55,602 bases of DNA from Bacteroidales bacterium (GTDB lineage Bacteria > Bacteroidota > Bacteroidia > Bacteroidales > VadinHA17), in the NCBI GenBank assembly GCA_025358645.1, contig JANYIW010000321.1:1-55602 (forward strand), written 5' to 3'. A program made the position numbers and the translations under genes. The notes below the pieces were generated by a model that made no database searches, was not told where the DNA came from, and saw only the letters and a list, made by a program, of their open reading frames with translations. Positions within the stretch are counted from its first letter, which is position 1, and each line of letters begins with the position of its first letter. Positions 9,462 through 21,124 of the stretch are shown one piece after another.

Positions 9462-10262
9462 GTGAAAGAACAACCAATCGGTATTTTTGATTCAGGGGTA
9501 GGAGGACTAACTGTAGCCCATGCAATTAAGCAGATTTTGCCTGGCGAAAGCCTAATCTATTTCGGAGATACAGCTCATCTGCCTTATGGAGATAAATCGG
9601 CAGAATCTATAAGATACTACTCTCAGCGGATTACTGAGTTTCTGCTGGAACACAATTCAAAAGTTGTTCTTATAGCCTGCAACTCTGCGTCAGCATCGGC
9701 ATTTGATTCACTCAAGAAAGAATTTGAAGGTAAAACCATACTTATTGATGTTATAAACCCGGTAGTAAACTATCTGAGTACAAGGAATTTCAATAAAATC
9801 GGGGTTATCGGCACCAAGAGGACAATAAGTTCCGGAACCTATGAACAGAAAATAAAGCAAAAGTCGCCATTGACAACTGTTATCTCATTGGCAACTCCAT
9901 TGCTTGTGCCGATGATTGAAGAGGGATTCATATTCGATGATATAAGTAATGCAATTATTCGTACTTATCTGACAAATGAGTCACTCTCCGGAATACAAGC
10001 ATTAATACTCGGCTGCACACATTATCCGATTATCAAAAACCAGATAAGTAAAATATTTAACTTTAATATAGAAGTTATTGATTCCGCAAGGATTGTTTCT
10101 ATGATCCTGAGAGAAGTGTTGGATAAAAACAACCTTTTAAACGATACCGGAAATGTGAAAGACCAGTTTTTTATTTCAGACTACACAACATACTTCGAAA
10201 AGATAGCGAGAATGTTCTTTGAAGGAGAAATAAACCTGAAAAAGGCAGATATCTGGAGCTGA
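9462..10262 (+). CDS. murI: Glutamate racemase
   Basis: FDSGVGG, PYG, ACNSA, LGCTHYP. Confidence 0.97.
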   Translation: MKEQPIGIFDSGVGGLTVAHAIKQILPGESLIYFGDTAHLPYGDKSAESIRYYSQRITEFLLEHNSKVVLIACNSASASAFDSLKKEFEGKTILIDVINPVVNYLSTRNFNKIGVIGTKRTISSGTYEQKIKQKSPLTTVISLATPLLVPMIEEGFIFDDISNAIIRTYLTNESLSGIQALILGCTHYPIIKNQISKIFNFNIEVIDSARIVSMILREVLDKNNLLNDTGNVKDQFFISDYTTYFEKIARMFFEGEINLKKADIWS

Positions 10263-10283
10263 GATTACCAAGTGTTAGAAACA

Positions 10284-10295
10284 TGATCAATATCA
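10284..10295. promoter_or_regulatory. Putative Crp/Fnr-family box upstream of korA
   Basis: TGAT-CAAT-ATCA, identical to 32894-32905; -7 element TAATTTTG at 10339-10346. Confidence 0.5.
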
Positions 10296-10409
10296 TATTC
10301 AAAAATCTAATATTGTACGATTTTCAATGTTTATTGGTTAATTTTGTGCATAGAAGCAGTTAGTTATCCTATTTTTTTCATACTATACTGAAATAAAATA
10401 AAAGGCATT

Positions 10410-12263
10410 ATGGGTAAAAAATCAGAAGCTATCGAAAGAGAAGAAGTAGTTATTCGTTTCTCGGGCGATTCAGGTGATGGTATGCAGTTGACTGGTACTC
10501 TATTCTCTGACACAGCTGCCTTATTCGGTAACGATTTATCGACTTTTCCTGACTATCCTGCTGAGATACGCGCCCCACAGGGAACTGTTGGAGGCGTTTC
10601 GGGCTTTCAGGTTCATCTGGGCCATTCGGAAATAAACACACCCGGAGATTTTTCTGATGTTCTGGTAGCAATGAATCCGGCTGCCCTCAAAGCAAATGCT
10701 AAATGGATCAAACCAGGTGGAACCATTATATATGATGAAGGCAACTTTACTGAGAAAAACATTGAGAAAGCCGGTTATAAAAAAAATCCGATATCAGAGG
10801 AAAATCTTGAAAATCATAATGTTATCGCAGCACCTATTTCTTCAATGGTGAAAGAAGCCCTTAAAGACTATGGTCTTGATCCAAAATCTGTTCTGAGGAC
10901 AAAAAATATGTTTGCATTGGGAATGGTTTATTGGCTGTTCGACCGTAAGCTCAAGTATACAGAAGATTACTTTGAGAAGAAGTTCAGAAATAAACCGGGC
11001 ATGGCTGAAGCAAATAAAGTTGCTTTACGAGCGGGGTATTACTATGCTGAAACTATCGAGGCTTTAACTCCTACATATAAAATTCTTCCTGCCGAGATTG
11101 CGAAAGGTACATACCGGAATATTAATGGAAATACGGCAACTGCCTGGGGTTTCATGGCTGCAGCCGAAAAAGCAGGATTGGAACTGTTTATTGGTTCATA
11201 TCCTATCACCCCGGCAACTGGAATCCTTGAAGAGCTGGCTGCCCGTAAAGATCTGGGTGTTAAAAGCTTCCAGGCTGAGGATGAGATAGCCGGAATCTGT
11301 ACTTCACTCGGAGCAAGTTTTGCAGGCAACCTGGCTGTTACCTCAACTTCCGGCCCGGGACTTTCGCTTAAATCCGAGGCAATCGGACTGGCTGTGATGG
11401 CTGAACTTCCGATTGTAATTGTGAATGTTCAGAGAGCAGGTCCTTCAACAGGACTTCCTACAAAGACTGAGCAGGCTGATCTGATGCAGGCTCTTTACGG
11501 CCGTAATGGAGAATGTCCTGTTGTAGTAATCGCTTCAAGTACACCTTCTGACTGTTTCCATTTTGCCTTTGAAGCAGCAAGAATTGCCCTGGAACACATG
11601 ACACCGGTATTACTTCTCTCCGACAGTTATCTGGCAAATGGTACAGAACCATGGAGAATTCCGGAAATGAAAGATCTTCCAAAAATCAATCCTCCGTTTG
11701 CTGACAGAACTGAAATCCCGTTTTTACCTTATAAACGTGATAATGACAAACTTGCAAGGTCATGGGCAGTACCGGGCATTCCTGGTCTGGAACACAGGAT
11801 AGGGGGACTGGAGAAAACAGACAAAGGAACGGTATCGTATGTTCCTGAAAATCACGAATATATGGTTAGGCTCAGAGCAGAGAAAGTTGAGAGAGTTGCC
11901 AATGAAATTCCCGGACTCGAAGTTTATGGTGCGAAATCAGGTGATATTCTGGTGGTTGGCTGGGGCGGATCTTATGGATACCTGTTAACTGCTGTCCGGG
12001 AATTACAGGATGAAGGTCATAAAGTGAGTCTGGCTAATTTCAATTTCATCAATCCTTTGCCAAAAAACGTAAAAAATGTATTCAGTCAATTCAAAAAGAT
12101 TGTGGTTTGCGAATTAAACATGGGTCAATTTGCTGACTATCTGCGTATTAAACATCAGGAATTCTCCTATGAACAACTTAATAAAATTCAGGGTCTCCCG
12201 TTTACGATAAATGATATTAAAGAAAAATGTATAAAAATACTGGAGGATAATCAAAATGGCTGA
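10410..12263 (+). CDS. korA: 2-oxoacid:ferredoxin oxidoreductase alpha subunit (gamma-alpha fusion)
   Basis: GDSGDGMQL, YPITPA, QAEDE, QRAGPSTGLPT. Confidence 0.9.
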   Translation: MGKKSEAIEREEVVIRFSGDSGDGMQLTGTLFSDTAALFGNDLSTFPDYPAEIRAPQGTVGGVSGFQVHLGHSEINTPGDFSDVLVAMNPAALKANAKWIKPGGTIIYDEGNFTEKNIEKAGYKKNPISEENLENHNVIAAPISSMVKEALKDYGLDPKSVLRTKNMFALGMVYWLFDRKLKYTEDYFEKKFRNKPGMAEANKVALRAGYYYAETIEALTPTYKILPAEIAKGTYRNINGNTATAWGFMAAAEKAGLELFIGSYPITPATGILEELAARKDLGVKSFQAEDEIAGICTSLGASFAGNLAVTSTSGPGLSLKSEAIGLAVMAELPIVIVNVQRAGPSTGLPTKTEQADLMQALYGRNGECPVVVIASSTPSDCFHFAFEAARIALEHMTPVLLLSDSYLANGTEPWRIPEMKDLPKINPPFADRTEIPFLPYKRDNDKLARSWAVPGIPGLEHRIGGLEKTDKGTVSYVPENHEYMVRLRAEKVERVANEIPGLEVYGAKSGDILVVGWGGSYGYLLTAVRELQDEGHKVSLANFNFINPLPKNVKNVFSQFKKIVVCELNMGQFADYLRIKHQEFSYEQLNKIQGLPFTINDIKEKCIKILEDNQNG

Positions 12264-13281
12264 AACACAGGTATATAAGTATACTCCGAAAGATTTTAAG
12301 AGCGATCAGGAAGTAAGATGGTGTCCGGGTTGCGGTGACCACGCAGTTCTGAGTTCAGTTCAAAAAGCTCTGGTTGAACTGGGGATACCCAAAGAGAGGT
12401 TTGCATTTATTTCTGGAATAGGTTGTTCATCAAGGTTTCCATATTACATGAATACTTATGGATTTCATAGTATCCACGGACGTGCAGCTGCAATAGCTTC
12501 AGGTGTTAAAACTGCCAATCCGGAATTGTCTGTGTGGCAGATTACCGGCGATGGCGATGCACTCGCGATCGGAGGTAATCACTTTATTCATGCTATCCGA
12601 CGCAATATCGATATTAATATCATATTGTTTAATAATGAGATATATGGTCTCACCAAAGGCCAGTATTCGCCCACATCCACAAAAGGACTGGTAACAAAAA
12701 CTTCTCCTTTTGGAACAGTTGAAGAACCCTTTTCTGTAGGGGAGCTTGTAATCGGTGCAAAAGGTAAATTCTTTGCCCGCACAATCGACACTAATATTGC
12801 ATTATCGACTCAGATTTATATCGAGGCTGCAAAACATAAAGGAACTTCAGTTATTGAAGTGCTTCAGAACTGCGTTATCTTTAATGATGGAATCCACGAC
12901 ACTATAGCTGAAAAAGAGGTAAGAGACGACAGAACTCTGATCCTCAAACATGGTCAGCCGATGACCTTCGGAAAGAATAATGAAAAGGGTCTGATACTTG
13001 AGGGTTGCAGGAGATTGAAGGCTGTTAATCTCGGAGAAGATGGAATAACTGAAAAGAATATTCTTGTTCATGACGCTTTTGAACCTAACCCTGGAATCCA
13101 GTATATGCTGGCTAATATGAAATACCCTGAATATCCTGTAGCTCTGGGAGTTATAAGATCTGTTGATGGGCCTACTTATGACATATCTGTGCAGGAACAG
13201 ATTGAGGGAATAAAAAAGACTGCAAAAATAAAATGTATGGATGACCTGCTTAAGAGTGGATCAACCTGGAGCGTAGGGTAG
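12256..13281 (+). CDS. korB: 2-oxoacid:ferredoxin oxidoreductase beta subunit
   Basis: WCPGCG, GIGCS, GDGD..N TPP motif, YGLTKGQ.SPT. Confidence 0.9.
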   Translation: MAETQVYKYTPKDFKSDQEVRWCPGCGDHAVLSSVQKALVELGIPKERFAFISGIGCSSRFPYYMNTYGFHSIHGRAAAIASGVKTANPELSVWQITGDGDALAIGGNHFIHAIRRNIDINIILFNNEIYGLTKGQYSPTSTKGLVTKTSPFGTVEEPFSVGELVIGAKGKFFARTIDTNIALSTQIYIEAAKHKGTSVIEVLQNCVIFNDGIHDTIAEKEVRDDRTLILKHGQPMTFGKNNEKGLILEGCRRLKAVNLGEDGITEKNILVHDAFEPNPGIQYMLANMKYPEYPVALGVIRSVDGPTYDISVQEQIEGIKKTAKIKCMDDLLKSGSTWSVG

Positions 13282-13310
13282 ACTAATCTGATCCTATAGA
13301 GATTCTGCCA

Positions 13311-16300
13311 ATGGATGAATCGATACAAAATACTCCTGAATATAACCGCTTACTGCATGATCAAGGTGAGCGTTTAAAGGAGTTGGCTTGTATAAACCGG
13401 ACAACATCAATTCTGAAAGAGTTTAAGCCAATAGAAGAATCACTTCAGCAAATAGTACTTCTTTTACCGGCAGCCTGGCAATACCCTGAATATACAGTGG
13501 CGCGAATCAGATTCATGGGAAAGGATTTTGAAACTGTTGATTTCCTCGAAACAAACTGGAGGATGGTTCAGGAGTTTTCCACTATAGACAATGAAAAAGG
13601 ATCAATAGAAATCTATTACACAACTGAATTCAATGCTGAAACTGAGGGCCCTTTTCTTAAGGAGGAGAGAGATCTGATCCTGAATATCGGAAGTCTACTG
13701 ACCGGCTATATAAACAGCTATAAAGCGAGGGATATCATCAGGTTATCGCAGGCCACGCAAAAGGATGATGAAGAGATTAATGAACTTTCCAGCAGGCAGC
13801 TTCTCCAGAAGTTTCTCGACAGGCATAATGCTGAAAGAGATGTCTTTCACGATCTTATGCCCTTTAAAGTAAAGGAGATCCTCCTTGTTGCAAATTTATA
13901 TGATGCATACTCTATTGAGGGAGAGGGACGGTTTTCCGACCACATGCTTGGGGAATATTATCAGATGAGTCTTACATCAATCCCAAGGGTTACTGGAGTT
14001 TCGGGGGAAGATGAAGCATTTGCAAGATTAAAAGCCAGGCACTACGATCTGATCATCATAATGATCGGTGTTGATAAAGAAAGCCCGATGATTCTCTGTA
14101 AAAAAATCAAGGAGAAATATCCCTATATCCCAACGTTTCTTCTGCTTAACAACCCGGGTGATGTAATTTTCGTAAAAAGGCAAAAAACACTGGGTATTCC
14201 TTTTGATAATTACTTTGTATGGACTGGCGAATCAAAGGTTTTCTTTGCAATGGTAAAACTACTTGAAGACAAGGTAAATGTGGATAACGATACAAAAAAA
14301 GGACTGACCAGGGTAATCCTGATAGTTGAAGATTCTGCAGAGTATTATTCAAGCTATCTGCCTATGCTCTATACTCTCGTAATGGAACAGACAAAAAACC
14401 TTATCGAGGATGTATCAACTGATGAATTGTATAAGGTATTGAAACTCAGGGCACGACCTAAAATACTCCTCGCGTCTGATTATGAGGATTCAATCACAAT
14501 TTATAATAAGTATAAGGATAGTCTGTTATGTGTCATTTCTGATATGCGGTTTCCAAAAAACGGCATACTGAATGATACAGCAGGATTTGACCTTATTAAG
14601 CATATTAAAAAAGACCTGCCTAATCTTCCTTCCGTACTTCAGTCGTCAGATCCGGGAAATGCAAGGTATGCCCATTCGCTGAAATCGAATTTTATAAATA
14701 AAAACTCGGAAAGCCTGCTACAGGATCTTAAGTCATTCATTAATTATTATCTTGGATTTGGCCACTTTGTTTACAGAGACACGAAAGGACGTCAGATCGC
14801 GGTGGCTAAATCGATGAAAGAGTTTGAAGCCTACCTTGAGACTGTCCCTGAAGACTCACTCGTTTATCATTCCATGAAAAATCATTTCTCGCTCTGGCTG
14901 ATGGCAAGAGGAGAGGTGAAAATTGCCAAAATGATAAATCCGATAGTAGTATCCGATTTCAACAGTCTTAAAGAACTCCGTGAATTCCTCATCGATATTA
15001 TCCGTAAGCGGCGAAGAGAAATGAACAAGGGAAAGGTTGTTAATTTTGACGAATCCCTGGTAATTGATGAGACAAATGTAGTAAGTCTTTCAGGAGGATC
15101 ACTTGGGGGGAAAGGCCGTGGTCTGGCATTCGTTAATACCCTTATATATAGTTTTGAGCTTGGTCGACTTTTACCGGGGATTAATATCAAAACACCTGTG
15201 ACCGCAATAATAGGAACAGATGAGTTTGATATGTTCATGGAACGAAATCATTTGTGGGACAAGGTAAAAAATGAGAAAGACTTCAATATACTTCAAAAAT
15301 TATTCCTTGAGGGAAACCTGAGTTATACTCTCGAAAAGGAGCTAAGGATTTTTATCAGACTTATAAATAAACCTCTGGCAGTAAGATCTTCCAGCCTTTT
15401 CGAAGATTCGATGAGCCAGCCATTCTCAGGTATATTCAGAACCTATCTCCTTCCGAATAATCATTCTGATCCGGATATAAGGCTGAAGCAGTTATCAGAA
15501 GCTATCAAACTGGTGTTTTCTTCTATATATTCAAGAAATGCACGTACTTATTTCGAAGCTATTAATTATAAAGTTGAACAGGAGAAGATGGCTGTGGCGA
15601 TACAGGAAGTTGTGGGGAACAGGTTTGAAGATGCATTTTATCCACATATAAGCGGAACTGCACAGTCATTCAATTTTTACCCGGTGGCTCACATGACCCC
15701 CCCGGACGGGTTTGCTGTTTTGGCCGTCGGACTCGGACATTATGTTGTTGAGGGCGAGAGAGCATTCAGATTTTCACCGGCATATCCCTCACTCGATATC
15801 ATCTCGCAAAAAGACCTTTATAAAAACTCACAGGTCATTTTCTATGCTGTTGATATGGCAAAAAAAGAACTTAATCTGCTCGAAGGGGAAAATGCCGGAC
15901 TTGTGAGACTCGATATCAGTCAGGCTGAAAAGCATGGAACACTCGGGCACTCTGCTTCAGTATTGAGCGTAGATAATGATACTATAGTTCCCGGGCTGGA
16001 CGCCTTCGGTCCAAGAGTAATAAATTTTGCAGACATTTTAAAATATGACTATATCCCTCTCGCATCTACTCTTAAGGTTGTGCTGGACGTTGTTACAGAA
16101 GCATTTGGCACCCCGGTCGAGATTGAGTTCGCGGTTGACCTTACAAAAGACAAGGATGGAAAAGCTTCATTTTATCTGTTACAGATAAAACCACTCGTTG
16201 GTGCTGGCGCTGGCTATTCAATTGACCCCGAAAGTATTATAAATGAAGATACTGTGCTTATTACAAGGAAAAGTATGGGTAACGGAGTAATTAACGATAT

Positions 16301-16757
16301 CACAGATTTCATATATGTGGAACCTGATAAGTTCAATAGCTCATTTACTAACGAGATGGCCGAAGAAATTGATTTGATGAACGAAAAGATGCTTTTGGAA
16401 AACCGCAGATATGTCCTTCTGGGACCAGGTAGATGGGGGACAAGAGACAAATTTCTGGGAATTCCGGTCGTTTGGCCCCAGATTTCAAATGCTAAAATCA
16501 TTGTTGAAGTCGGATTGCCTGAATTCCATGTAGATGCATCGCTGGGATCTCACTTTTTCCATAATGTCACATCTATGAATGTTGGATATTTTTCGATTAA
16601 CCATGGGTCAAACGATGGAACAATTATATGGGATAAACTAAAGAAACAAAAAGTAATTGAAAATGGGAAATTCTTCCGTCATATCCGCTTTGAGAAACCT
16701 CTTTTAATACGCATGGATGGGAAAAAAGGTATGGCTGTAATCTCTATGAATAATTAA
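13311..16757 (+). CDS. Receiver-domain / PEP-pyruvate-binding (PPDK_N ATP-grasp) protein with extra N-terminal GAF-like domain
   Basis: GGKGRGL, LAVRSSSLFED, EIEFA, LQIKP; receiver VED..VISDMRFP; C-terminal SLGSHFF. Confidence 0.8.
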   Translation: MDESIQNTPEYNRLLHDQGERLKELACINRTTSILKEFKPIEESLQQIVLLLPAAWQYPEYTVARIRFMGKDFETVDFLETNWRMVQEFSTIDNEKGSIEIYYTTEFNAETEGPFLKEERDLILNIGSLLTGYINSYKARDIIRLSQATQKDDEEINELSSRQLLQKFLDRHNAERDVFHDLMPFKVKEILLVANLYDAYSIEGEGRFSDHMLGEYYQMSLTSIPRVTGVSGEDEAFARLKARHYDLIIIMIGVDKESPMILCKKIKEKYPYIPTFLLLNNPGDVIFVKRQKTLGIPFDNYFVWTGESKVFFAMVKLLEDKVNVDNDTKKGLTRVILIVEDSAEYYSSYLPMLYTLVMEQTKNLIEDVSTDELYKVLKLRARPKILLASDYEDSITIYNKYKDSLLCVISDMRFPKNGILNDTAGFDLIKHIKKDLPNLPSVLQSSDPGNARYAHSLKSNFINKNSESLLQDLKSFINYYLGFGHFVYRDTKGRQIAVAKSMKEFEAYLETVPEDSLVYHSMKNHFSLWLMARGEVKIAKMINPIVVSDFNSLKELREFLIDIIRKRRREMNKGKVVNFDESLVIDETNVVSLSGGSLGGKGRGLAFVNTLIYSFELGRLLPGINIKTPVTAIIGTDEFDMFMERNHLWDKVKNEKDFNILQKLFLEGNLSYTLEKELRIFIRLINKPLAVRSSSLFEDSMSQPFSGIFRTYLLPNNHSDPDIRLKQLSEAIKLVFSSIYSRNARTYFEAINYKVEQEKMAVAIQEVVGNRFEDAFYPHISGTAQSFNFYPVAHMTPPDGFAVLAVGLGHYVVEGERAFRFSPAYPSLDIISQKDLYKNSQVIFYAVDMAKKELNLLEGENAGLVRLDISQAEKHGTLGHSASVLSVDNDTIVPGLDAFGPRVINFADILKYDYIPLASTLKVVLDVVTEAFGTPVEIEFAVDLTKDKDGKASFYLLQIKPLVGAGAGYSIDPESIINEDTVLITRKSMGNGVINDITDFIYVEPDKFNSSFTNEMAEEIDLMNEKMLLENRRYVLLGPGRWGTRDKFLGIPVVWPQISNAKIIVEVGLPEFHVDASLGSHFFHNVTSMNVGYFSINHGSNDGTIIWDKLKKQKVIENGKFFRHIRFEKPLLIRMDGKKGMAVISMNN

Positions 16758-16767
16758 TAAAAAACCT

Positions 16768-19737
16768 ATGACCATTATTGAGGGAATACTGGATCTTCAG
16801 CAATATGATTTTACCGATACATCTTTCGACCTTCTGATGCAGAAGAGAATACATCGCGTACTTGTTATTTGCAGTAACTATGATAACTACATGCTGGAGG
16901 AAGACGGGAGAATTGATGAACAGATTTTTAATGAGTATGCATCGCTTAATTTACGGTATCCTCCGACATTTGTTCAGACTGATAATGCAGAAGATGCATT
17001 CAGAATACTTCAGGATGGTAATATTGATCTGGTAATATCAATGCTAAGCCTCAAAGGTACCGATGTCTTCGCCCTGGCAAAGAGAATCAAAACAAAATAT
17101 GAAAACATTCCAATTGTAGTGCTCACCTACTTTTCGAGAGAGGTATCTCTGCGACTTGAAGGGGAGGACCTTAGTGCAATTGATTATGTTTTTTGCTGGC
17201 TGGGAGATGCATCTCTCATCTTGGCCATTATCAAATTGATAGAGGATAAAATGAATGCTGATTATGATATAGAGCATATCGGTGTTCAGGCTATAATACT
17301 GGTCGAAAACTCAATCAGGTATATTTCATCTTACCTTCCGAATATTTATCGGATTGTACTTCTGCAATCGCTTGATTTTCAGCGTGAAGCATTGAACGAG
17401 CATCAAAGAATGCTTAAAATGAGAGGCCGGCCTAAGATTCTGCTTGCAAACAATTTCAATGATGCCCGTGATCTTTACAAAAAGTATAAATATAATGTCC
17501 TGGGTGTTATTTCAGATATAAGTTATAAGAGAGATAATATAACAGATGAAAACGCCGGCATCGAATTATGTAAGGTTGTTATGGCGGACGATGACAAAGT
17601 ACCCTTTCTGATTCAATCATCAAGTACTACACATAAGAAGATAGCAGAAGATCTTGGAGCAGGATTTATTAATAAGTATTCCAAATCATTGTCTCTGGAA
17701 TTAAGGAACTTCATTATACAGAATCTCGCTTTCGGTCCCTTTGTATTCAGGAATCCTGTCACACTCGAACCAATAGCCATTGCCACTGACCTACAGAGCC
17801 TTCAACAGAAATTACTGACAATCCCCGACAATACGCTTGAGTACCATGCCACACGAAATCATTTTTCCAAATGGCTGAATGCCAGAGCGCTCTTCCCCGT
17901 TGCCCAGATGTTCAAATACATCCGGCAGGAGGATTTTCAAACAATGGATGAGATGCGACGCTTCCTTTATATCGCAATTTCAAGCTTCAGACTGGGGAAA
18001 GGCAGAGGAGTAATTGCGAAATTTGATAAGACAAGCTTTGATGAGTACCAGGTCTTTTCACGTATCGGTGAAGGATCAATCGGAGGCAAAGCAAGAGGGC
18101 TGGCGTTTATTAATAGTATAATCAAAAACAGTAAGCTGTTTAATAAATTTCCAGACGTGCTTATTTCTATTCCACGTACAGTCGTTTTAAGCACGGATAT
18201 CTTCGATGAGTTTATGGATCAGAATAATCTCTATTCGATAGCATTATCTGACCTTACTGATGATGAGATCCTTAACAGATTCATTAATGCTGAACTGCCA
18301 GGACATGTGTACCAGGATTTTTATGCATTCCTTGCAGTTTCAAAAAATTATCCAATCGCGGTCCGCTCTTCGAGTAAACTGGAAGATTCACACTATCAGC
18401 CGTTTGCCGGAATCTATTCGACTTATATGATTCCACGGTGTGCTGATAATAAACAGATGGTTAAGATGCTGTCCGATGCCATCAAAGAGGTTTATGCTTC
18501 GGTATATTATAAGGCCAGCAAAGCCTATATGACTGCTACTGCGAATGTAATTGATGAAGAGAAGATGGGAATCATCCTGCAGGAGGTTTGTGGCAACAGG
18601 CATGGGGAAATATTTTACCCTACACTTTCAGGAGTTGCAAGATCAATAAATTATTATCCCATAGGTTCTGAAAAAGCTGAAGATGGCATTGTGAACATTG
18701 CATTTGGCCTCGGGAAACTGATTGTTGAGGGTGGATTATCTCTCAGGTTTTCTCCAAAATACCCTAAAAAAATACTTCAGCTCTCATCTCCTAAAGCAGC
18801 ATTACAGGATTCCCAGAAAGAGTTTTGTGCTCTGGATCTGAATATCAATAGCTTTGTCCCGTCAACGGATGACGGAGTTAATATACTTAAGATTGATATT
18901 AAGGATCTTGACAATGATACAGCCCTAAGATATATTGCTTCAACTTATGACAGGAACAATAATGTTCTTCGGGATGGAATCAGTCAAAAGGGGAAACGGG
19001 TAATAACTTTTTCAAATATACTTCAGCATAAGACATTCCCTCTCGCGGAAATTTTAAGTACCCTCCTTGAGATTGGACAACAGGAGATGAATAACCCTAT
19101 TGAAATTGAATTTGCTGCCAATCTGGAAACACCGGCGGGTACTCCGAAAATATTCAACTTTCTACAGATAAGACCGATAGTTCAAACTGAAGAGGCACAT
19201 AGCATTAATCTCGATCATATAAAACAAGAAGAAACCATAATTTATTCTGAATCAGCACTCGGGAATGGCCTTTTTAGGGGTATCAATGACCTTGTTTATG
19301 TCAGACCCGAATCTTTTAATCCAGCCAATAATAAAAATATTGCAATTGAAATTGAAAAGATAAATACTTTATTTGTAAAACAGGGGAAGGGATATATACT
19401 TATTGGTCCGGGCAGATGGGGCTCAGTTGATCCCTGGCTTGGAATCCCGGTTAAGTGGCCGCAAATTTCGGCAGCCAGAATCATTATTGAATCGGGTTTA
19501 AAGAATTACAGGATAGATCCGAGTCAGGGAACACATTTCTTTCAAAACCTCACTTCATTCAGAGTTGGATATTTTACCATTAATCCCTATATCAACGAAG
19601 GTTATTATGATGTTGATTTTCTGAATAAACAAAATGTTGTTTATGAAGATAGCTTCATCAGGCATGTCAGGTTTGATAATCCACTTGAAATAATGATTGA
19701 TGGTAAGAAACACAGAGGAGTAATTTTGAAACCTTAA
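16768..19737 (+). CDS. Receiver-domain / PEP-pyruvate-binding (PPDK_N ATP-grasp) protein, paralog 2
   Basis: GGKARGL, IAVRSSSKLED, EIEFA, LQIRP, GPGRWG, PSQGTHFFQN. Confidence 0.8.
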   Translation: MTIIEGILDLQQYDFTDTSFDLLMQKRIHRVLVICSNYDNYMLEEDGRIDEQIFNEYASLNLRYPPTFVQTDNAEDAFRILQDGNIDLVISMLSLKGTDVFALAKRIKTKYENIPIVVLTYFSREVSLRLEGEDLSAIDYVFCWLGDASLILAIIKLIEDKMNADYDIEHIGVQAIILVENSIRYISSYLPNIYRIVLLQSLDFQREALNEHQRMLKMRGRPKILLANNFNDARDLYKKYKYNVLGVISDISYKRDNITDENAGIELCKVVMADDDKVPFLIQSSSTTHKKIAEDLGAGFINKYSKSLSLELRNFIIQNLAFGPFVFRNPVTLEPIAIATDLQSLQQKLLTIPDNTLEYHATRNHFSKWLNARALFPVAQMFKYIRQEDFQTMDEMRRFLYIAISSFRLGKGRGVIAKFDKTSFDEYQVFSRIGEGSIGGKARGLAFINSIIKNSKLFNKFPDVLISIPRTVVLSTDIFDEFMDQNNLYSIALSDLTDDEILNRFINAELPGHVYQDFYAFLAVSKNYPIAVRSSSKLEDSHYQPFAGIYSTYMIPRCADNKQMVKMLSDAIKEVYASVYYKASKAYMTATANVIDEEKMGIILQEVCGNRHGEIFYPTLSGVARSINYYPIGSEKAEDGIVNIAFGLGKLIVEGGLSLRFSPKYPKKILQLSSPKAALQDSQKEFCALDLNINSFVPSTDDGVNILKIDIKDLDNDTALRYIASTYDRNNNVLRDGISQKGKRVITFSNILQHKTFPLAEILSTLLEIGQQEMNNPIEIEFAANLETPAGTPKIFNFLQIRPIVQTEEAHSINLDHIKQEETIIYSESALGNGLFRGINDLVYVRPESFNPANNKNIAIEIEKINTLFVKQGKGYILIGPGRWGSVDPWLGIPVKWPQISAARIIIESGLKNYRIDPSQGTHFFQNLTSFRVGYFTINPYINEGYYDVDFLNKQNVVYEDSFIRHVRFDNPLEIMIDGKKHRGVILKP

Positions 19738-19801
19738 AAGTATCTGGAGTACCTGAGGAACTTATAGTTTGGAGTTAAAATTTATGAAAAAATAAACTAT
19801 T

Positions 19802-20209
19802 ATGGAAACAGCAAAAACAAAATACATTGGAGATCTGAGAACTGAAATAGTACATACAAAATCCGGAAGTGTCATTACAACCGATGCACCTGCCGATAAT
19901 AAGGGAAAAGGTGAGAACTTTTCCCCGACAGATATGGTTGCTTCTGCACTCGGGAGCTGTATCTTTACCATAATGGGTATTGCAGCCAGAGAACATTCAT
20001 TCTCAATTGATGGCAGTAAATGCAGGATAACAAAAATCATGAATGAAAACCCGCGAAAGATCGGGGAGATCAGAATTGAATTCGACTTTACCGGGAATGT
20101 ATATTCTGATAAACAGAAAAAAATCCTGGATTATTGCGTAAAAACGTGCCCGGTTGCATTGTCTCTTAATGAATCTGTATTTCAGAATGTAACGTTGTTA
20201 TTCAAATAA
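19802..20209 (+). CDS. OsmC family protein
   Basis: TDAP.DN.GKG..FSPTD..A.ALGSC, CPV. Confidence 0.9.
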   Translation: METAKTKYIGDLRTEIVHTKSGSVITTDAPADNKGKGENFSPTDMVASALGSCIFTIMGIAAREHSFSIDGSKCRITKIMNENPRKIGEIRIEFDFTGNVYSDKQKKILDYCVKTCPVALSLNESVFQNVTLLFK

Positions 20210-20242
20210 GACCATAGCAGTATAACATCATAATGTTATCTT

Positions 20243-21124
20243 TCAGAACGATGCGCTCTCTGTGACAACATCTCTGTTTACTTTTTTAATCAGTGCTGAT
20301 AATACACATCCCGGACCCACTTCAACAAATGATGTTGCACCACCGGATATCATATTGATTACGCTTTGTGTCCATCGTACAGGTGAAGTGAGTTGTGAAA
20401 CAAGGTTTAATTTTATAATTTCAGGATCGATACATGGATTTGCATTAACATTCTGATAAACAGGACATATCGGTTTGTGGAAGATGGTATTTCTGATTGC
20501 TTCTTCAAGTTCCATGCGTGCAGGTTCCATGAGAGGTGAATGGAAAGCCCCACCAACGGAGAGTTTAATTGCTCTTTTTGCACCTTTTTCTTTGAGTATT
20601 TCTATTGCCTTATCAATACCGTCAAATGAACCGGATATTACAATCTGTCCGGGACTGTTGTAATTTGCAGGAACAACAACCTCCTTTACAGAAGCACAAA
20701 CCTCCTCAACGATCTTATCATCCAGCCCAAGAATTGCAGCCATGGTTGAAGGTGTCTTTTCACATGCTTTCTGCATAGCTCTTGCCCTTTTTGATACCAG
20801 AATAAGTCCATCGCTGAAAGTGAGTGTTTTATTTGCAACCAGTGCTGAGAACTCACCAAGTGAATGGCCTGCAACCATATCGGGTTTGAATGAATCGCCA
20901 AGTAAGGCAGCTAGAATTGTAGAATGGAGAAATATTGCCGGTTGGGTAACCTTTGTCTGTTTCAGATCTTCATCGGTACCGGTAAACATAAGATCAGTAA
21001 TCCGGAATCCAAGTATTGAATTGGCCTTTTCGAACATATCTTTTGCCAGGCTTGATTTGTCATAAAGATCCTTACCCATTCCGATAAACTGAGCTCCCTG
21101 TCCGGGAAAAACGTATGCTTTCAT
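20243..21124 (-). CDS. fabD: Malonyl-CoA:ACP transacylase
   Basis: FPGQGAQ, GHSLGE, AFHS; start at ATG 21124. Confidence 0.97.
   Translation of the reverse strand: MKAYVFPGQGAQFIGMGKDLYDKSSLAKDMFEKANSILGFRITDLMFTGTDEDLKQTKVTQPAIFLHSTILAALLGDSFKPDMVAGHSLGEFSALVANKTLTFSDGLILVSKRARAMQKACEKTPSTMAAILGLDDKIVEEVCASVKEVVVPANYNSPGQIVISGSFDGIDKAIEILKEKGAKRAIKLSVGGAFHSPLMEPARMELEEAIRNTIFHKPICPVYQNVNANPCIDPEIIKLNLVSQLTSPVRWTQSVINMISGGATSFVEVGPGCVLSALIKKVNRDVVTESASF

Follow-up and report, generated by a model that had tools for sequence, protein, structure and literature searches.

Two adjacent receiver-containing, PEP synthase-like paralogs of a Bacteroidales genome and the association of their family with glutamate dehydrogenase genes

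The locus and its two large paralogs

In the window analysed here, which is the whole 55,602-nt stretch of DNA, two large paralogous genes lie directly behind a pair of genes resembling korA and korB (Table 1). The korA-like product reaches 655 bits with NCBIfam TIGR03710 against a cut-off of 483, and the NCBIfam beta-subunit models that match the korB-like product all do so below their cut-offs; judged by these matches, the pair would encode a 2-oxoacid:acceptor oxidoreductase, for which 2-oxoglutarate is a putative substrate. The two paralogs, referred to as LONG (P0001) and SHORT (P0002), share the same residue at 37% of 972 aligned positions (BLASTP, E = 0), far above chance, and the narrow gaps after korB and between the two genes are those given in the original prediction. 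The domain order is the same in both proteins: a pseudo-receiver comes first and a true receiver second, and these are followed by a helical module, an ATP-grasp domain of PPDK type, and a C-terminal domain of 175 residues.

Table 1. Genes and protein domains at the locus (positions in the window; residue numbers refer to each protein).
Feature	Position	Strand	Basis or remark
korA-like 2-oxoacid:acceptor oxidoreductase, alpha subunit	10410..12263	+	Pfam POR, POR_N, PFOR_II; NCBIfam TIGR03710
korB-like 2-oxoacid:acceptor oxidoreductase, beta subunit	12256..13281	+	Pfam TPP_enzyme_C; 8 nt overlap with korA
LONG paralog (P0001), 1148 aa	13311..16757	+	ORF; 29 nt downstream of korB
LONG N-terminal module, ~aa 1-135	13311..13715	+	LONG-specific; conserved in 15 aligned copies
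LONG pseudo-receiver, aa 188-331, DLIIIM	13872..14303	+	aligned to P0002 residues 29-171; no acceptor Asp
LONG receiver, Asp411 (codon 14541, VISD)	14304..14768	+	aligned to P0002 residues 172-325
LONG helical module (NHFSLWL), DUF5752-like	14769..15041	+	Pfam PF19027 at residues 499-581
LONG PPDK-type ATP-grasp domain	15042..16226	+	Pfam PF01326 (PPDK_N), residues 597-963, E 1.1e-36
LONG predicted C-terminal swivel-like domain, His1081 (codon 16551), GSHFF	16227..16754	+	aligned with P0002 C-terminal domain
SHORT paralog (P0002), 989 aa	16768..19737	+	ORF; 10 nt downstream of LONG
SHORT pseudo-receiver, aa 29-171, DLVISM	16852..17280	+	Pfam Response_reg at 69-142, E 3.6e-9
SHORT receiver, Asp250 (codon 17515, VISD), Ser284, Lys303	17281..17742	+	structure matches; Pfam detects none
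SHORT helical module (NHFSKWL)	17743..18018	+	aligned to DUF5752-like stretch of P0001
SHORT PPDK-type ATP-grasp domain	18019..19209	+	Pfam PF01326 (PPDK_N), residues 437-821, E 2.5e-37
SHORT predicted C-terminal swivel-like domain, His923 (codon 19534), GTHFF	19210..19734	+	model and structure matches

LONG and SHORT are probably co-transcribed with the 2-oxoacid:ferredoxin oxidoreductase genes in the source genome. A scan of positions 9900-20400, performed with a tool that carries no Bacteroidota promoter model, returned promoter and terminator counts no higher than those of shuffled sequence, and no terminator-like site in either of the short gaps. Two metatranscriptome runs of a single study contain small shares (0.05) of the stretch; metatranscriptome contigs 90-100% alike to the locus were placed on korB and on parts of LONG, and a 275-nt contig spanning 13060-13333 reaches 23 nt into LONG, below the 31-nt bridging threshold. 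Such matches prove neither expression nor co-transcription, because DNA can occur in these libraries.

Domain anatomy of LONG and SHORT

The N-terminal module found only in LONG gave no Pfam match and only weak, GAF-like leads (Atlas, 0.86-0.87; best PDB profile match 4g3v, a GAF-containing regulator, E 0.15). It is repeated in one protein of ~1530 aa, and is possibly a sensor. Of the receiver-like domains that follow, the first gives a weak Response_reg match in LONG (residues 226-276, E 0.005, under the Pfam cut-off), and in the SHORT model residues 29-171 match PleD 9g85_C with Z 12.7. In our family alignment, which holds 93 sequences of 31-51% identity, Asp occupies the acceptor position of this domain in 0/93 (Met in 54, Thr in 14, Ser in 5, Val in 5 and Phe in 3, with 12 others), and Ser/Ala-Ser stands in place of the acidic pair; going by these residues, the domain is a pseudo-receiver. 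The second domain is a receiver fold with the acceptor Asp, the Ser/Thr and the Lys: residues 172-325 of the SHORT model match receiver structures with Z 13-14.5 (115-118 residues aligned, rmsd 2.0-2.3), and E180, D250, S284 and K303 are kept in 89, 84, 88 and 90 of the 93 sequences, respectively, with P0002 itself having Asn at the second acidic position. The pairing of an Asp-less first receiver (DLIIIM/DLVISM) with a second one bearing the VISD Asp, Ser and Lys had been proposed for these two proteins, and the motifs, which are as described, turn out to be conserved across the family.

The helical module proposed on the basis of an 'NHFS.WL' motif can likewise be read in both paralogs. In LONG it scores 24.8 bits with PF19027 (DUF5752) against a cut-off of 23, the match covering only profile positions 20-116 of 208; Pfam gave no PF19027 match in P0002, where the model shows a beta-hairpin and then five helices. 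Among 14 control genomes, DUF5752 matches were seen only in Sulfolobus acidocaldarius, and our literature search returned nothing on this domain.

The assignment of a PEP synthase-type ATP-grasp domain to both proteins is borne out by the PF01326 matches (Table 1). In SHORT, this domain matches rifampin phosphotransferase (RPH) 5hv6_A with Z 23.9 over 276 aligned residues, and G439, G440, K441, R533, S534, S535, E539, D540 and Q800 are invariant in the 93 sequences, with R802 and P803 kept in at least 90% of them. Both proteins end ~175 residues past the ATP-grasp domain, which in SHORT (to ~814) directly abuts the C-terminal domain (815-989), with no substrate-binding domain between the two. 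A PEP/pyruvate TIM barrel was found neither by Pfam (E <= 0.1) in either protein nor in the SHORT model; the NCBIfam PEP-synthase equivalogs reached only 14-54 bits against cut-offs of 598-972, and the RPH-family equivalogs remained far under theirs. That these proteins are not PEP synthases, as originally predicted, is upheld by these results, and the labels under which family members are found in databases, 'phosphoenolpyruvate synthase' or 'CheY-like protein', are misleading.

The C-terminal domain escapes sequence profiles. No PF00391 (PEP-utilizers mobile domain) match was obtained with Pfam at E <= 0.1 in either protein; with hhalign, an alignment of 27 C-terminal sequences compared to 19 swivel domains from PPDK, PEPS and enzyme-I-like genes yielded a probability of 0.3% (E 0.21), and the full-length alignment one of 0.1% with the same 19 domains. 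A PDB profile search returned nothing under E 0.27, and the Atlas returned only fragments of the family itself. Foldseek found nothing at E <= 0.001 for the isolated domain, its weak rows being mostly what we take to be other swivelling beta/beta/alpha folds. Structure prediction was more informative, with pLDDT 92.0 and pTM 0.87 for the AlphaFold2 model of the whole SHORT protein and pLDDT 90.7 for the isolated C-terminal domain. Among 48,161 chains, the best 8 matches of the isolated domain include six phosphohistidine-type swivel domains with Z 5.2-6.7: RPH 757-866 (Z 6.7), two PPDK structures (2fm4, Z 6.3; 1vbg 387-511, Z 6.2) and, at Z 5.2-5.7, three N-terminal regions of enzyme I. The remaining two are a DRTGG domain (Z 6.5) and a pyruvate kinase C-terminal domain (2e28, Z 6.7); Z values of 6-6.7 are middling by the tool's own scale.

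The whole SHORT model aligns through both its ATP-grasp and its C-terminal domain with RPH 5hv3 (Z 26.2, 360 residues, chain 6-866), PEP synthase 2ols (Z 25.8, 361 residues, chain 4-466) and PPDK 1dik (Z 18.8, 352 residues, chain 6-510), and PPDK 1vbg and 2r82, of which only 2r82 is titled 'second conformational state', align only up to residue 340-344 (226-227 residues). The C-terminal domain is hence modelled as packing on the ATP-grasp domain in the way seen in RPH, in PEP synthase and in a subset of PPDK structures. In the same model a helix starts at Thr922, one residue ahead of His923, a position which we take to be that of the TSH histidine in PEP-utilizer domains. This His is present in 27/27 sequences of the C-terminal alignment, and in the family the G-[ST]-H motif is kept as Gly in 93/93, Ser/Thr in 85/93 and His in 92/93, next to invariant R883 and E908, and D888 and S919 in at least 90%. 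The C-terminal domain is therefore predicted to be a phosphohistidine 'swivel' fold undetected by sequence profiles, in agreement with the earlier reading of GSHFF/GTHFF as the site of a swivel-domain His.

The family and its glutamate dehydrogenase neighbours

LONG and SHORT belong to a very large, uncharacterised family of enzymes of the response-regulator type, which we found in 56 of the 61 Bacteroidales genomes sampled, with further members in named records of Bacteroides, Parabacteroides and Prevotella. Our searches of main texts found no experiment on the family and no characterised member, nothing relevant linking PPDK_N with response regulators, and nothing joining a pyruvate-binding domain-containing protein, a response regulator and Bacteroides. 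In the tree, the LONG clade, which contains P0001, is monophyletic (29 tips, support 1.0). SHORT occurs alone in 23 and LONG alone in 9 of the 55 Bacteroidales genomes with the family, and where a genome has both types these often reside at separate loci, which gives no support to an obligate heteromer of the two proteins. Receiver-less forms of ~590 aa also exist, as do apparent read-through fusions (P0241, P0264), and the receiver Asp is lost in nine of the 93 aligned members.

The conserved neighbour of the family is glutamate dehydrogenase (GDH), korAB being a secondary neighbour seen in Bacteroidales loci. In 22 of 55 Bacteroidales genomes, sampled as one per family-level group and, being related, not independent observations, a gdh gene is found no further than 5 kb from a family gene; counted from the other side, 25 of 84 gdh matches in Bacteroidales genomes have a family gene within 5 kb. 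The remaining 33/55 genomes had no gdh at that distance, in part because assemblies are fragmented. GDH was also present in 10 of 20 fetched family loci and in 14 of 17 additional ones, most of which belong to other classes. Among loci taken from named genome records it was present in 33 of 79, and in Lutibacter and Polaribacter records the family gene is sandwiched between GDH2 and GDH1; by our own estimate a GDH would adjoin a family gene by chance in ~0.6% of cases per gene. Histidine kinase genes are not a conserved neighbour, having been seen close to a family member at one of 20 loci. The association is in fact specific to paralog and isozyme: SHORT pairs with a GDH1-type gene in 13/13 cases, always downstream on the same strand, and LONG with a GDH2-type gene in 12/13. 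This pairing was confirmed on the tree and with the GDH1 and GDH2 of the source genome as references, and the neighbours of the LONG clade within 2.5 kb are six GDH2-type and no GDH1-type genes. At the present locus, tblastn found no gdh in the window; the two gdh genes of the source genome are on another contig, and in its closest relatives the genes on either side of the two paralogs are korB and OsmC or FabD rather than gdh. Thus, of the original proposal, the link to the 2-oxoglutarate/glutamate node has strong backing from the neighbourhood survey, and korAB as the conserved partner gives way to GDH. Since the family is found beside GDH genes so regularly, control of GDH is probable.

Bacteroidales assimilate ammonia largely via GDH, and we know of no post-translational control of their two GDH isozymes. 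The GDH of Bacteroides fragilis was, according to an old report, reversibly inactivated in vivo; our literature search found no paper on reversible inactivation of GDH in Bacteroides or B. fragilis, and nothing tying Bacteroidetes GDH to PEP synthase-like or response regulator proteins. Two GDHs are mentioned for B. fragilis in PMC4539542. The gdh region BT1970-1973 of B. thetaiotaomicron was considered as a site of a family gene and rejected, as BT1971 is described as a catalase in PMC12596196; papers retrieved by the locus tags of this region had no bearing on the family.

A predicted complex between the GDH1 of the source genome and residues 440-989 of SHORT scored 0.53, compared to 0.00 for the best control, with at least 68% of contacts agreeing between runs and a partner pLDDT of at least 79. 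The mark used for this score was passed by 58 of 80 solved complexes and by 2 of 110 mismatched pairs, and scores up to 0.60 among passing pairs comprise just 7 of the 80 solved complexes and both passing mismatches; as modelled, the complex lends weak support to an interaction between GDH1 and SHORT.

Candidate functions of the paralogs

Among known systems, rifampin phosphotransferase (RPH-Lm; 5hv1, 5hv3, 5fbs) resembles the paralogs in that a single chain begins with an ATP-grasp domain of PPDK type and ends with a His domain of swivel type. No other structure matches better (Z 26.2-26.5), and RPH also leads the PDB sequence-profile matches (E ~1e-12, over the ATP-grasp domain). RPH, however, has a substrate-binding domain of ~430 aa between the two, a canonical PEP-utilizer His domain and no receivers, whereas the paralogs have a His domain that sequence does not reveal, contiguous with the ATP-grasp domain, and ahead of both lie ~420 aa that comprise the pseudo-receiver, the receiver and the helical module. 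PPDK and PEP synthase (1dik, 2ols) share the succession of ATP-grasp and phosphohistidine-type domain (352 and 361 residues superpose), but carry a TIM barrel and a PF00391 domain, neither of which was detected in the paralogs. In PleD-type regulators, too, an enzymatic output follows two N-terminal receiver folds of which only one bears the acceptor Asp, and PleD structures match the SHORT model (Foldseek E 5e-8; VIA Z 12.7); their output, however, is a GGDEF domain rather than a dikinase-like module, and the paralogs reverse the order, with the pseudo-receiver first. At the 2-oxoglutarate/glutamate branch point, a possible functional analogue is the PknG-GarA/OdhI system of actinobacteria, which controls 2-oxoglutarate dehydrogenase and GDH by phosphorylation through a Ser/Thr kinase and an FHA adaptor, and whose proteins are different and without homology to the paralogs. 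By analogy, the closest and best functional precedent is VadK (Rv1127c) of M. tuberculosis, described in PMC13400623 as a truncated canonical PPDK of ~50 kDa that consists of ATP-grasp and His domains, phosphorylates itself on His422, and has enzymes of the methylcitrate cycle as interaction partners. Compared through that published description, VadK has the same two domains and no barrel, and differs in its lack of receivers, its methylcitrate-cycle context and its actinobacterial host (PMC13400623).

Based on the domain anatomy, conservation, fold similarity and neighbourhood statistics, the explanation that we favour, if by a modest degree, is that LONG and SHORT are regulatory dikinases which phosphorylate themselves, are gated by a receiver and serve the 2-oxoglutarate/glutamate node, with GDH as their probable target. 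The ATP-grasp domain would move a phosphoryl group from ATP to the conserved His of the swivel-like domain, which would then act on, or signal to, another protein, because a domain for a small-molecule substrate could be recognised in neither paralog. The second receiver would gate this activity upon phosphorylation of its Asp by a kinase or a small phosphodonor, with the pseudo-receiver and helical module relaying or scaffolding the signal. The target may lie at the 2-oxoglutarate/glutamate node and would most likely be GDH itself, with one dedicated regulator for each isozyme, SHORT for GDH1-type and LONG for GDH2-type enzymes. The narrower version, in which the paralogs are dedicated protein (di)kinases of the two GDH isozymes and the phospho-His is passed to, or switches, the cognate GDH, we put forward only tentatively.

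Somewhat less probable still, and in our opinion unlikely, is that the paralogs are receiver-regulated dikinases of a small molecule, as RPH, phenylphosphate synthase and HpeI are, with a metabolite of the node, for example a 2-oxoacid or amino acid, as the substrate and the helical module or an ATP-grasp insertion as its binding site. The nearest solved relatives, RPH 5hv1 (Z 26.5), PEP synthase 2ols and HpeI 9goj (Z 19.4), would point in this direction, as would the active site-like polar residues that are invariant in the C-terminal domain besides His (R883, E908) and the fact that the neighbouring enzymes all use 2-oxoglutarate or glutamate; however, a third domain such as the rifampin-binding domain of RPH or the PEP/pyruvate barrel is missing, the pairing of paralog with isozyme is more easily reconciled with protein recognition than with a shared metabolite, and the predicted GDH interface, weak as it is, favours a protein target. 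A self-contained phosphorelay, from ATP to the swivel His and on to a receiver Asp, either within the protein itself or in its paralog, with the receiver output acting on KorAB or GDH, appears more improbable again, in spite of the joint conservation of the His (92/93) and the Asp (84/93), the adjacency of the paralogs here and the apparent fusions elsewhere, and in spite of the gap that an internal phosphodonor would fill given the rarity of neighbouring histidine kinase genes. Indeed, all nine Asp-less members retain the His and the ATP-grasp residues, the receiver-less forms adjoin GDH-like genes, 32 of the 55 genomes have one paralog type only, and we know of no case in which a swivel His hands its phosphoryl group to a receiver Asp; the first two of these observations do not support a relay from ATP through His to the protein's own Asp as the core function. 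The least probable alternative, to which we give very little credence, is that both the ATP-grasp half and the C-terminal half sense a nucleotide or ligand without catalysis and that the proteins regulate GDH or KorAB by binding alone, with the His serving a structural or ligand-binding role. Sequence does not reveal the C-terminal domain as a PEP-utilizer domain, and the predicted GDH complex hints at binding only, not at catalysis, but the ATP-grasp signature and the G-[ST]-H motif are invariant or nearly so in the 93 sequences at their 31-51% identity, and the model positions the C-terminal domain as in those PPDK structures that align through their His domain.

New in this work are the predicted swivel fold of the C-terminal domain, GDH as the conserved neighbour of the family, and the pairing of paralogs with isozymes, which yields the testable hypothesis of one regulator per GDH. 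Should LONG and SHORT be dedicated protein (di)kinases of the two GDH isozymes, a signal borne by the receivers could switch the ammonia-assimilating and the glutamate-catabolising GDH on and off reciprocally, which could explain the reversible in vivo inactivation of GDH once reported in B. fragilis, and Bacteroidota would possess a nitrogen-control system assembled from the parts of PEP synthase. The architecture would also extend the idea, recently raised by VadK, of dikinase halves as metabolic regulators, with the recruited module placed here under two-component control.

Domain make-up and spread of the LONG-SHORT family

The paralogs LONG (P0001) and SHORT (P0002) are 37% identical across 972 residues, with an extra N-terminal stretch of about 160-175 residues in LONG, and are the only copies of their family in the window's genome. 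The observation behind the original prediction is real, and all the motifs and codon positions named there are present. Given the 29-nt and 10-nt gaps, neither holding a terminator-like site, co-transcription of the putative operon with korAB is likely, although metatranscriptome contigs (from one study) that overlap korB and LONG left the junction unbridged by the tool's criterion. The 8-nt korA/korB overlap (window 12256-12263) suggests translational coupling of the oxidoreductase pair. Downstream of the OsmC-like gene lie fabD, folE and a PTPS gene on the opposite strand.

Genes of the korAB-LONG-SHORT block, in window coordinates
Gene	Position	Strand	Remark
2-oxoacid:acceptor oxidoreductase alpha subunit (korA-like)	10410-12263	+	
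2-oxoacid:acceptor oxidoreductase beta-like subunit (korB-like)	12256-13281	+	
LONG (P0001)	13311-16757	+	1148 aa; starts 29 nt past korB
SHORT (P0002)	16768-19737	+	989 aa; starts 10 nt past LONG
OsmC-like gene	19802-20209		between SHORT and fabD

Both proteins have a PPDK_N ATP-grasp domain by Pfam (1.1e-36 and 2.5e-37), which also placed a receiver at SHORT residues 69-142 and, marginally, DUF5752 at LONG residues 499-581; at E <= 0.1 neither a PEP-utilizer mobile domain nor a PEP/pyruvate barrel was found in either. The NCBIfam equivalogs for PEP synthase (PEPS), PigC/RedH and rifampin phosphotransferase (RPH) were rejected, their matches covering the ATP-grasp part only, at 14-54 bits against cut-offs of 598-1350. 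SHORT was modelled confidently with AlphaFold2 from an alignment of 93 sequences (pLDDT 92.0, pTM 0.87); when this model was searched with VIA, residues 29-171 matched a receiver fold (PleD, Z 12.7), residues 172-325 another receiver (Z 13-14.5, rmsd about 2.0-2.3 over 115-118 aligned residues), and the protein from about residue 418 on RPH, PEPS and PPDK. The acceptor position of the first receiver is Asp in none of the 93 sequences (Met 54, Thr 14, Ser 5, Val 5, Phe 3, other residues 12), which marks it, as judged from the alignment, as a pseudo-receiver, and the second is conserved at Glu180 (89/93), Asp250 (84/93), Ser284 (88/93) and Lys303 (90/93; SHORT numbering). Because the ATP-grasp signature is kept (GGK, RSS, ED and Gln800 invariant, Arg802 and Pro803 in at least 90%), the family is predicted to use ATP, and likely does.

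At least 7997 clusters at 90% identity are SHORT-like, with the source names 'CheY-like', 'PEP/pyruvate-binding domain-containing protein' or 'phosphoenolpyruvate synthase', and the matches at E <= 1e-30 form 1222 clusters at 50% identity; the genes are mis-annotated. A match was found in 56 of 61 genomes of the order sample (one per family-level group, the window's own included), in 17 of 81 of a phylum-wide sample, with 14 of 61 from other classes, and in none of the 17 same-class genomes searched outside the order; named Flavobacteriaceae records with the gene include Lutibacter, Gillisia and Polaribacter. The LONG type forms a clade of 29 tips (support 1.0) in a 131-sequence tree.

Several members depart from the usual architecture. 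LONG-type proteins of about 1415-1560 aa occur at L016:5210-9799 (G007:C10) and in genomes G039, G036 and G028, and in L016, the one inspected, the extra length comes from two or three tandem copies of the N-terminal module of about 120-140 aa. The database proteins P0241 (1639 aa) and P0264 (1523 aa), each with two PPDK_N stretches, resemble an in-frame fusion of a first family gene, cut short, with an entire second one, and may be genuine fusions of a tandem pair or gene-calling read-through. A SHORT orthologue (L005:9837-12845; G018:C6:9855-12800) carries a single in-frame TGA close to its C-terminus, which may reflect sequencing error, a pseudogene or recoding.

The C-terminal domain

The proposal of a dikinase-based phosphorelay hinges on the C-terminal domain, and here sequence and structure part ways. 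Sequence searches gave no relationship: Pfam and a PDB profile search returned no match for the domain, and hhalign against 19 genuine swivel domains a probability of 0.3%. The isolated domain, modelled at pLDDT 90.7, likewise had no Foldseek match at E <= 0.001. In a VIA search against 48,161 chains, however, phosphohistidine-type swivel domains took six of the eight best places, with Z values that are middling taken alone: RPH residues 757-866 (Z 6.7), the PPDK phosphoryl-carrier domain 2fm4 (6.3), maize PPDK 387-511 (6.2) and three enzyme I N-terminal regions (5.2-5.7), the other two being the pyruvate kinase 2e28 C-terminal domain (6.7) and a DRTGG domain (6.5). As an internal control, the whole SHORT model, with both domains counted, aligned over 347-361 residues with RPH, PEPS and several PPDK, the alignment reaching chain residue 866 in RPH 5hv3, 466 in PEPS 2ols and 505-510 in PPDK 1dik, 1kbl, 2dik and 1ggo, whereas with PPDK 1vbg and 2r82 (the latter titled 'second conformational state') just 226-227 residues aligned, ending at 340-344. 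The model thus docks the domain on the ATP-grasp domain as the His domain is docked in the PPDK structures aligned through both domains, not as in 1vbg and 2r82; in the former set we take the His domain to face the nucleotide site. In the models the domain runs hairpin, helix, strand, short helix, strand, loop, G-T-H at a helix start, strand, presumably the order of a canonical swivel domain, which would have T-S-H where G-[ST]-H (Gly 93/93, Ser/Thr 85/93, His 92/93) stands here. From these matches, the placement, the secondary-structure order and the motif, the domain is most likely a swivel-type phospho-carrier, as far as models can tell.

Linkage to glutamate dehydrogenase genes

Of the two neighbours suggested for the family, korAB proved far less general, and the link to the 2-oxoglutarate/glutamate node held through glutamate dehydrogenase (GDH). 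Directly beside the family gene, korAB-like genes stand in 5 of the first 20 loci (in a sixth they lie 3.3 kb off); among 79 loci from named records they occur in 14. The window's arrangement is a minority one among the Bacteroidales loci examined; GDH was near in 10 of the same 20, in 33 of the 79, and in 14 of 17 loci mostly of other classes, ELFV dehydrogenase paralogs of about 30% identity included. In genome-wide counts, gdh lies no more than 5 kb from a family gene in 22 of 55 Bacteroidales genomes, and a family gene stands within that range of 25 of the 84 gdh matches, chance adjacency being 0.6% per gene on our own rough estimate and related genomes not being independent. Even so, the geometry varies (gdh may follow on the same strand, lie divergently upstream or stand on both sides of the family gene), which points to linkage that has been maintained, not to frozen synteny. 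The window's lineage departs from this pattern: in its genome both gdh genes sit side by side on a different contig (G000:C333). Its closest relatives (L070-L077) read korB-LONG-SHORT-(OsmC)-fabD, and L084 reads korB-LONG-SHORT-gdh-fabD with a GDH1-type gene in the OsmC slot; in the window's lineage, gdh seems to have moved out of the block. In L073, L074 and L077 the slot holds neither gene.

In other classes of the phylum, up to three ELFV-type dehydrogenase genes flank the family gene (L053, L055-L058, L061): one is GDH2-type, and the remaining one or two are paralogs at a mere 30% identity or so. In another class (L066:4623-9079, L067:7028-11352, L068:7004-9571), a GDH-like gene (about 32% identity) precedes a receiver-less form of about 590 aa, with ATP-grasp and C-terminal domain, and a third gene of about 1070 aa that begins with the LONG-type N-terminal module and has a second, more distant PPDK_N domain. 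No conserved receiver, response-regulator or histidine-kinase partner stands beside the family genes (a histidine kinase was near in 1 of 20 loci; in L009 one lies 3.4 kb away); a stand-alone receiver protein (L006:12983-13348) and a LuxR-type response regulator (L016:9807-10460) each directly adjoin one.

The two isozyme types are divided between the paralogs. In the order sample, all 13 GDH1-type genes adjoining a family gene lie downstream of SHORT on the same strand, and 12 of 13 GDH2-type genes adjoin LONG, mostly divergent upstream (exception G044), under identity thresholds set after the data had been inspected; the classification was therefore redone on the tree and against the GDH1 and GDH2 of the genome itself as reference sequences (70-79% versus about 60% identity, and the reverse). 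The LONG clade has six GDH2-type neighbours and no GDH1-type within 2.5 kb, and Bacteroidales SHORT genes have GDH1-type neighbours with two GDH2-type exceptions (L065, L125). Immediately upstream of single-copy family genes in other classes lies a GDH2-type gene, and five Flavobacteriaceae-type loci (Lutibacter, Polaribacter, a Flavobacteriaceae MAG) hold the gene between GDH2 and GDH1. The simplest account would be that one GDH-flanked regulator duplicated, each copy staying with one isozyme. Bacteroides fragilis is described as having two GDHs that respond in opposite ways to organic nitrogen, an NAD(P)H-GDH for ammonia assimilation and a catabolic NADH-GDH (PMC4539542).

A probable receiver-gated regulator rather than a relay

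The original prediction had phosphate pass from ATP through His to Asp or to a target, perhaps within a heteromer of the two paralogs. Neither a relay to the protein's own Asp nor an obligate heteromer is supported in the family. All 9 of the 93 members that lack Asp250 keep His923 and the ATP-grasp residues, and receiver-less forms of about 590 aa adjoin GDH-like genes; most genomes have one type only or hold both apart (by identity to SHORT, of 55 in the order sample, both types in 23, SHORT only in 23, LONG only in 9). On these grounds the second receiver is best read as a regulatory input.

Contact with GDH has weak backing from complex prediction. The genome's own GDH1 with SHORT residues 440-989 scored 0.53 against 0.00 for the best control ('weak support'), past a mark that 58 of 80 solved complexes also pass, as do 2 of 110 mismatched pairs, and in a range (0.60 or under) that holds only 7 of the 80 and both passing mismatches; across runs at least 68% of contacts agree, with partner pLDDT of at least 79. 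Added to the strong prior from gene context, this weak prediction nudges the odds towards a candidate physical contact of SHORT with GDH, and it has no bearing on phosphotransfer.

The nearest precedent for the mechanism, by analogy, is VadK, a truncated PPDK for which autophosphorylation on His and interaction with methylcitrate-cycle enzymes were shown (PMC13400623). LONG and SHORT resemble it in pairing an ATP-grasp with a His domain, of probable swivel type and docked in the SHORT model, which has no recognisable third, substrate-binding domain. The ATP-grasp domain would use ATP with the swivel-type His domain docked on it, and the receiver would act as regulatory input, not as relay output. 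The family is best read as an uncharacterised, receiver-gated, dikinase-like regulator tied to the GDH isozymes.
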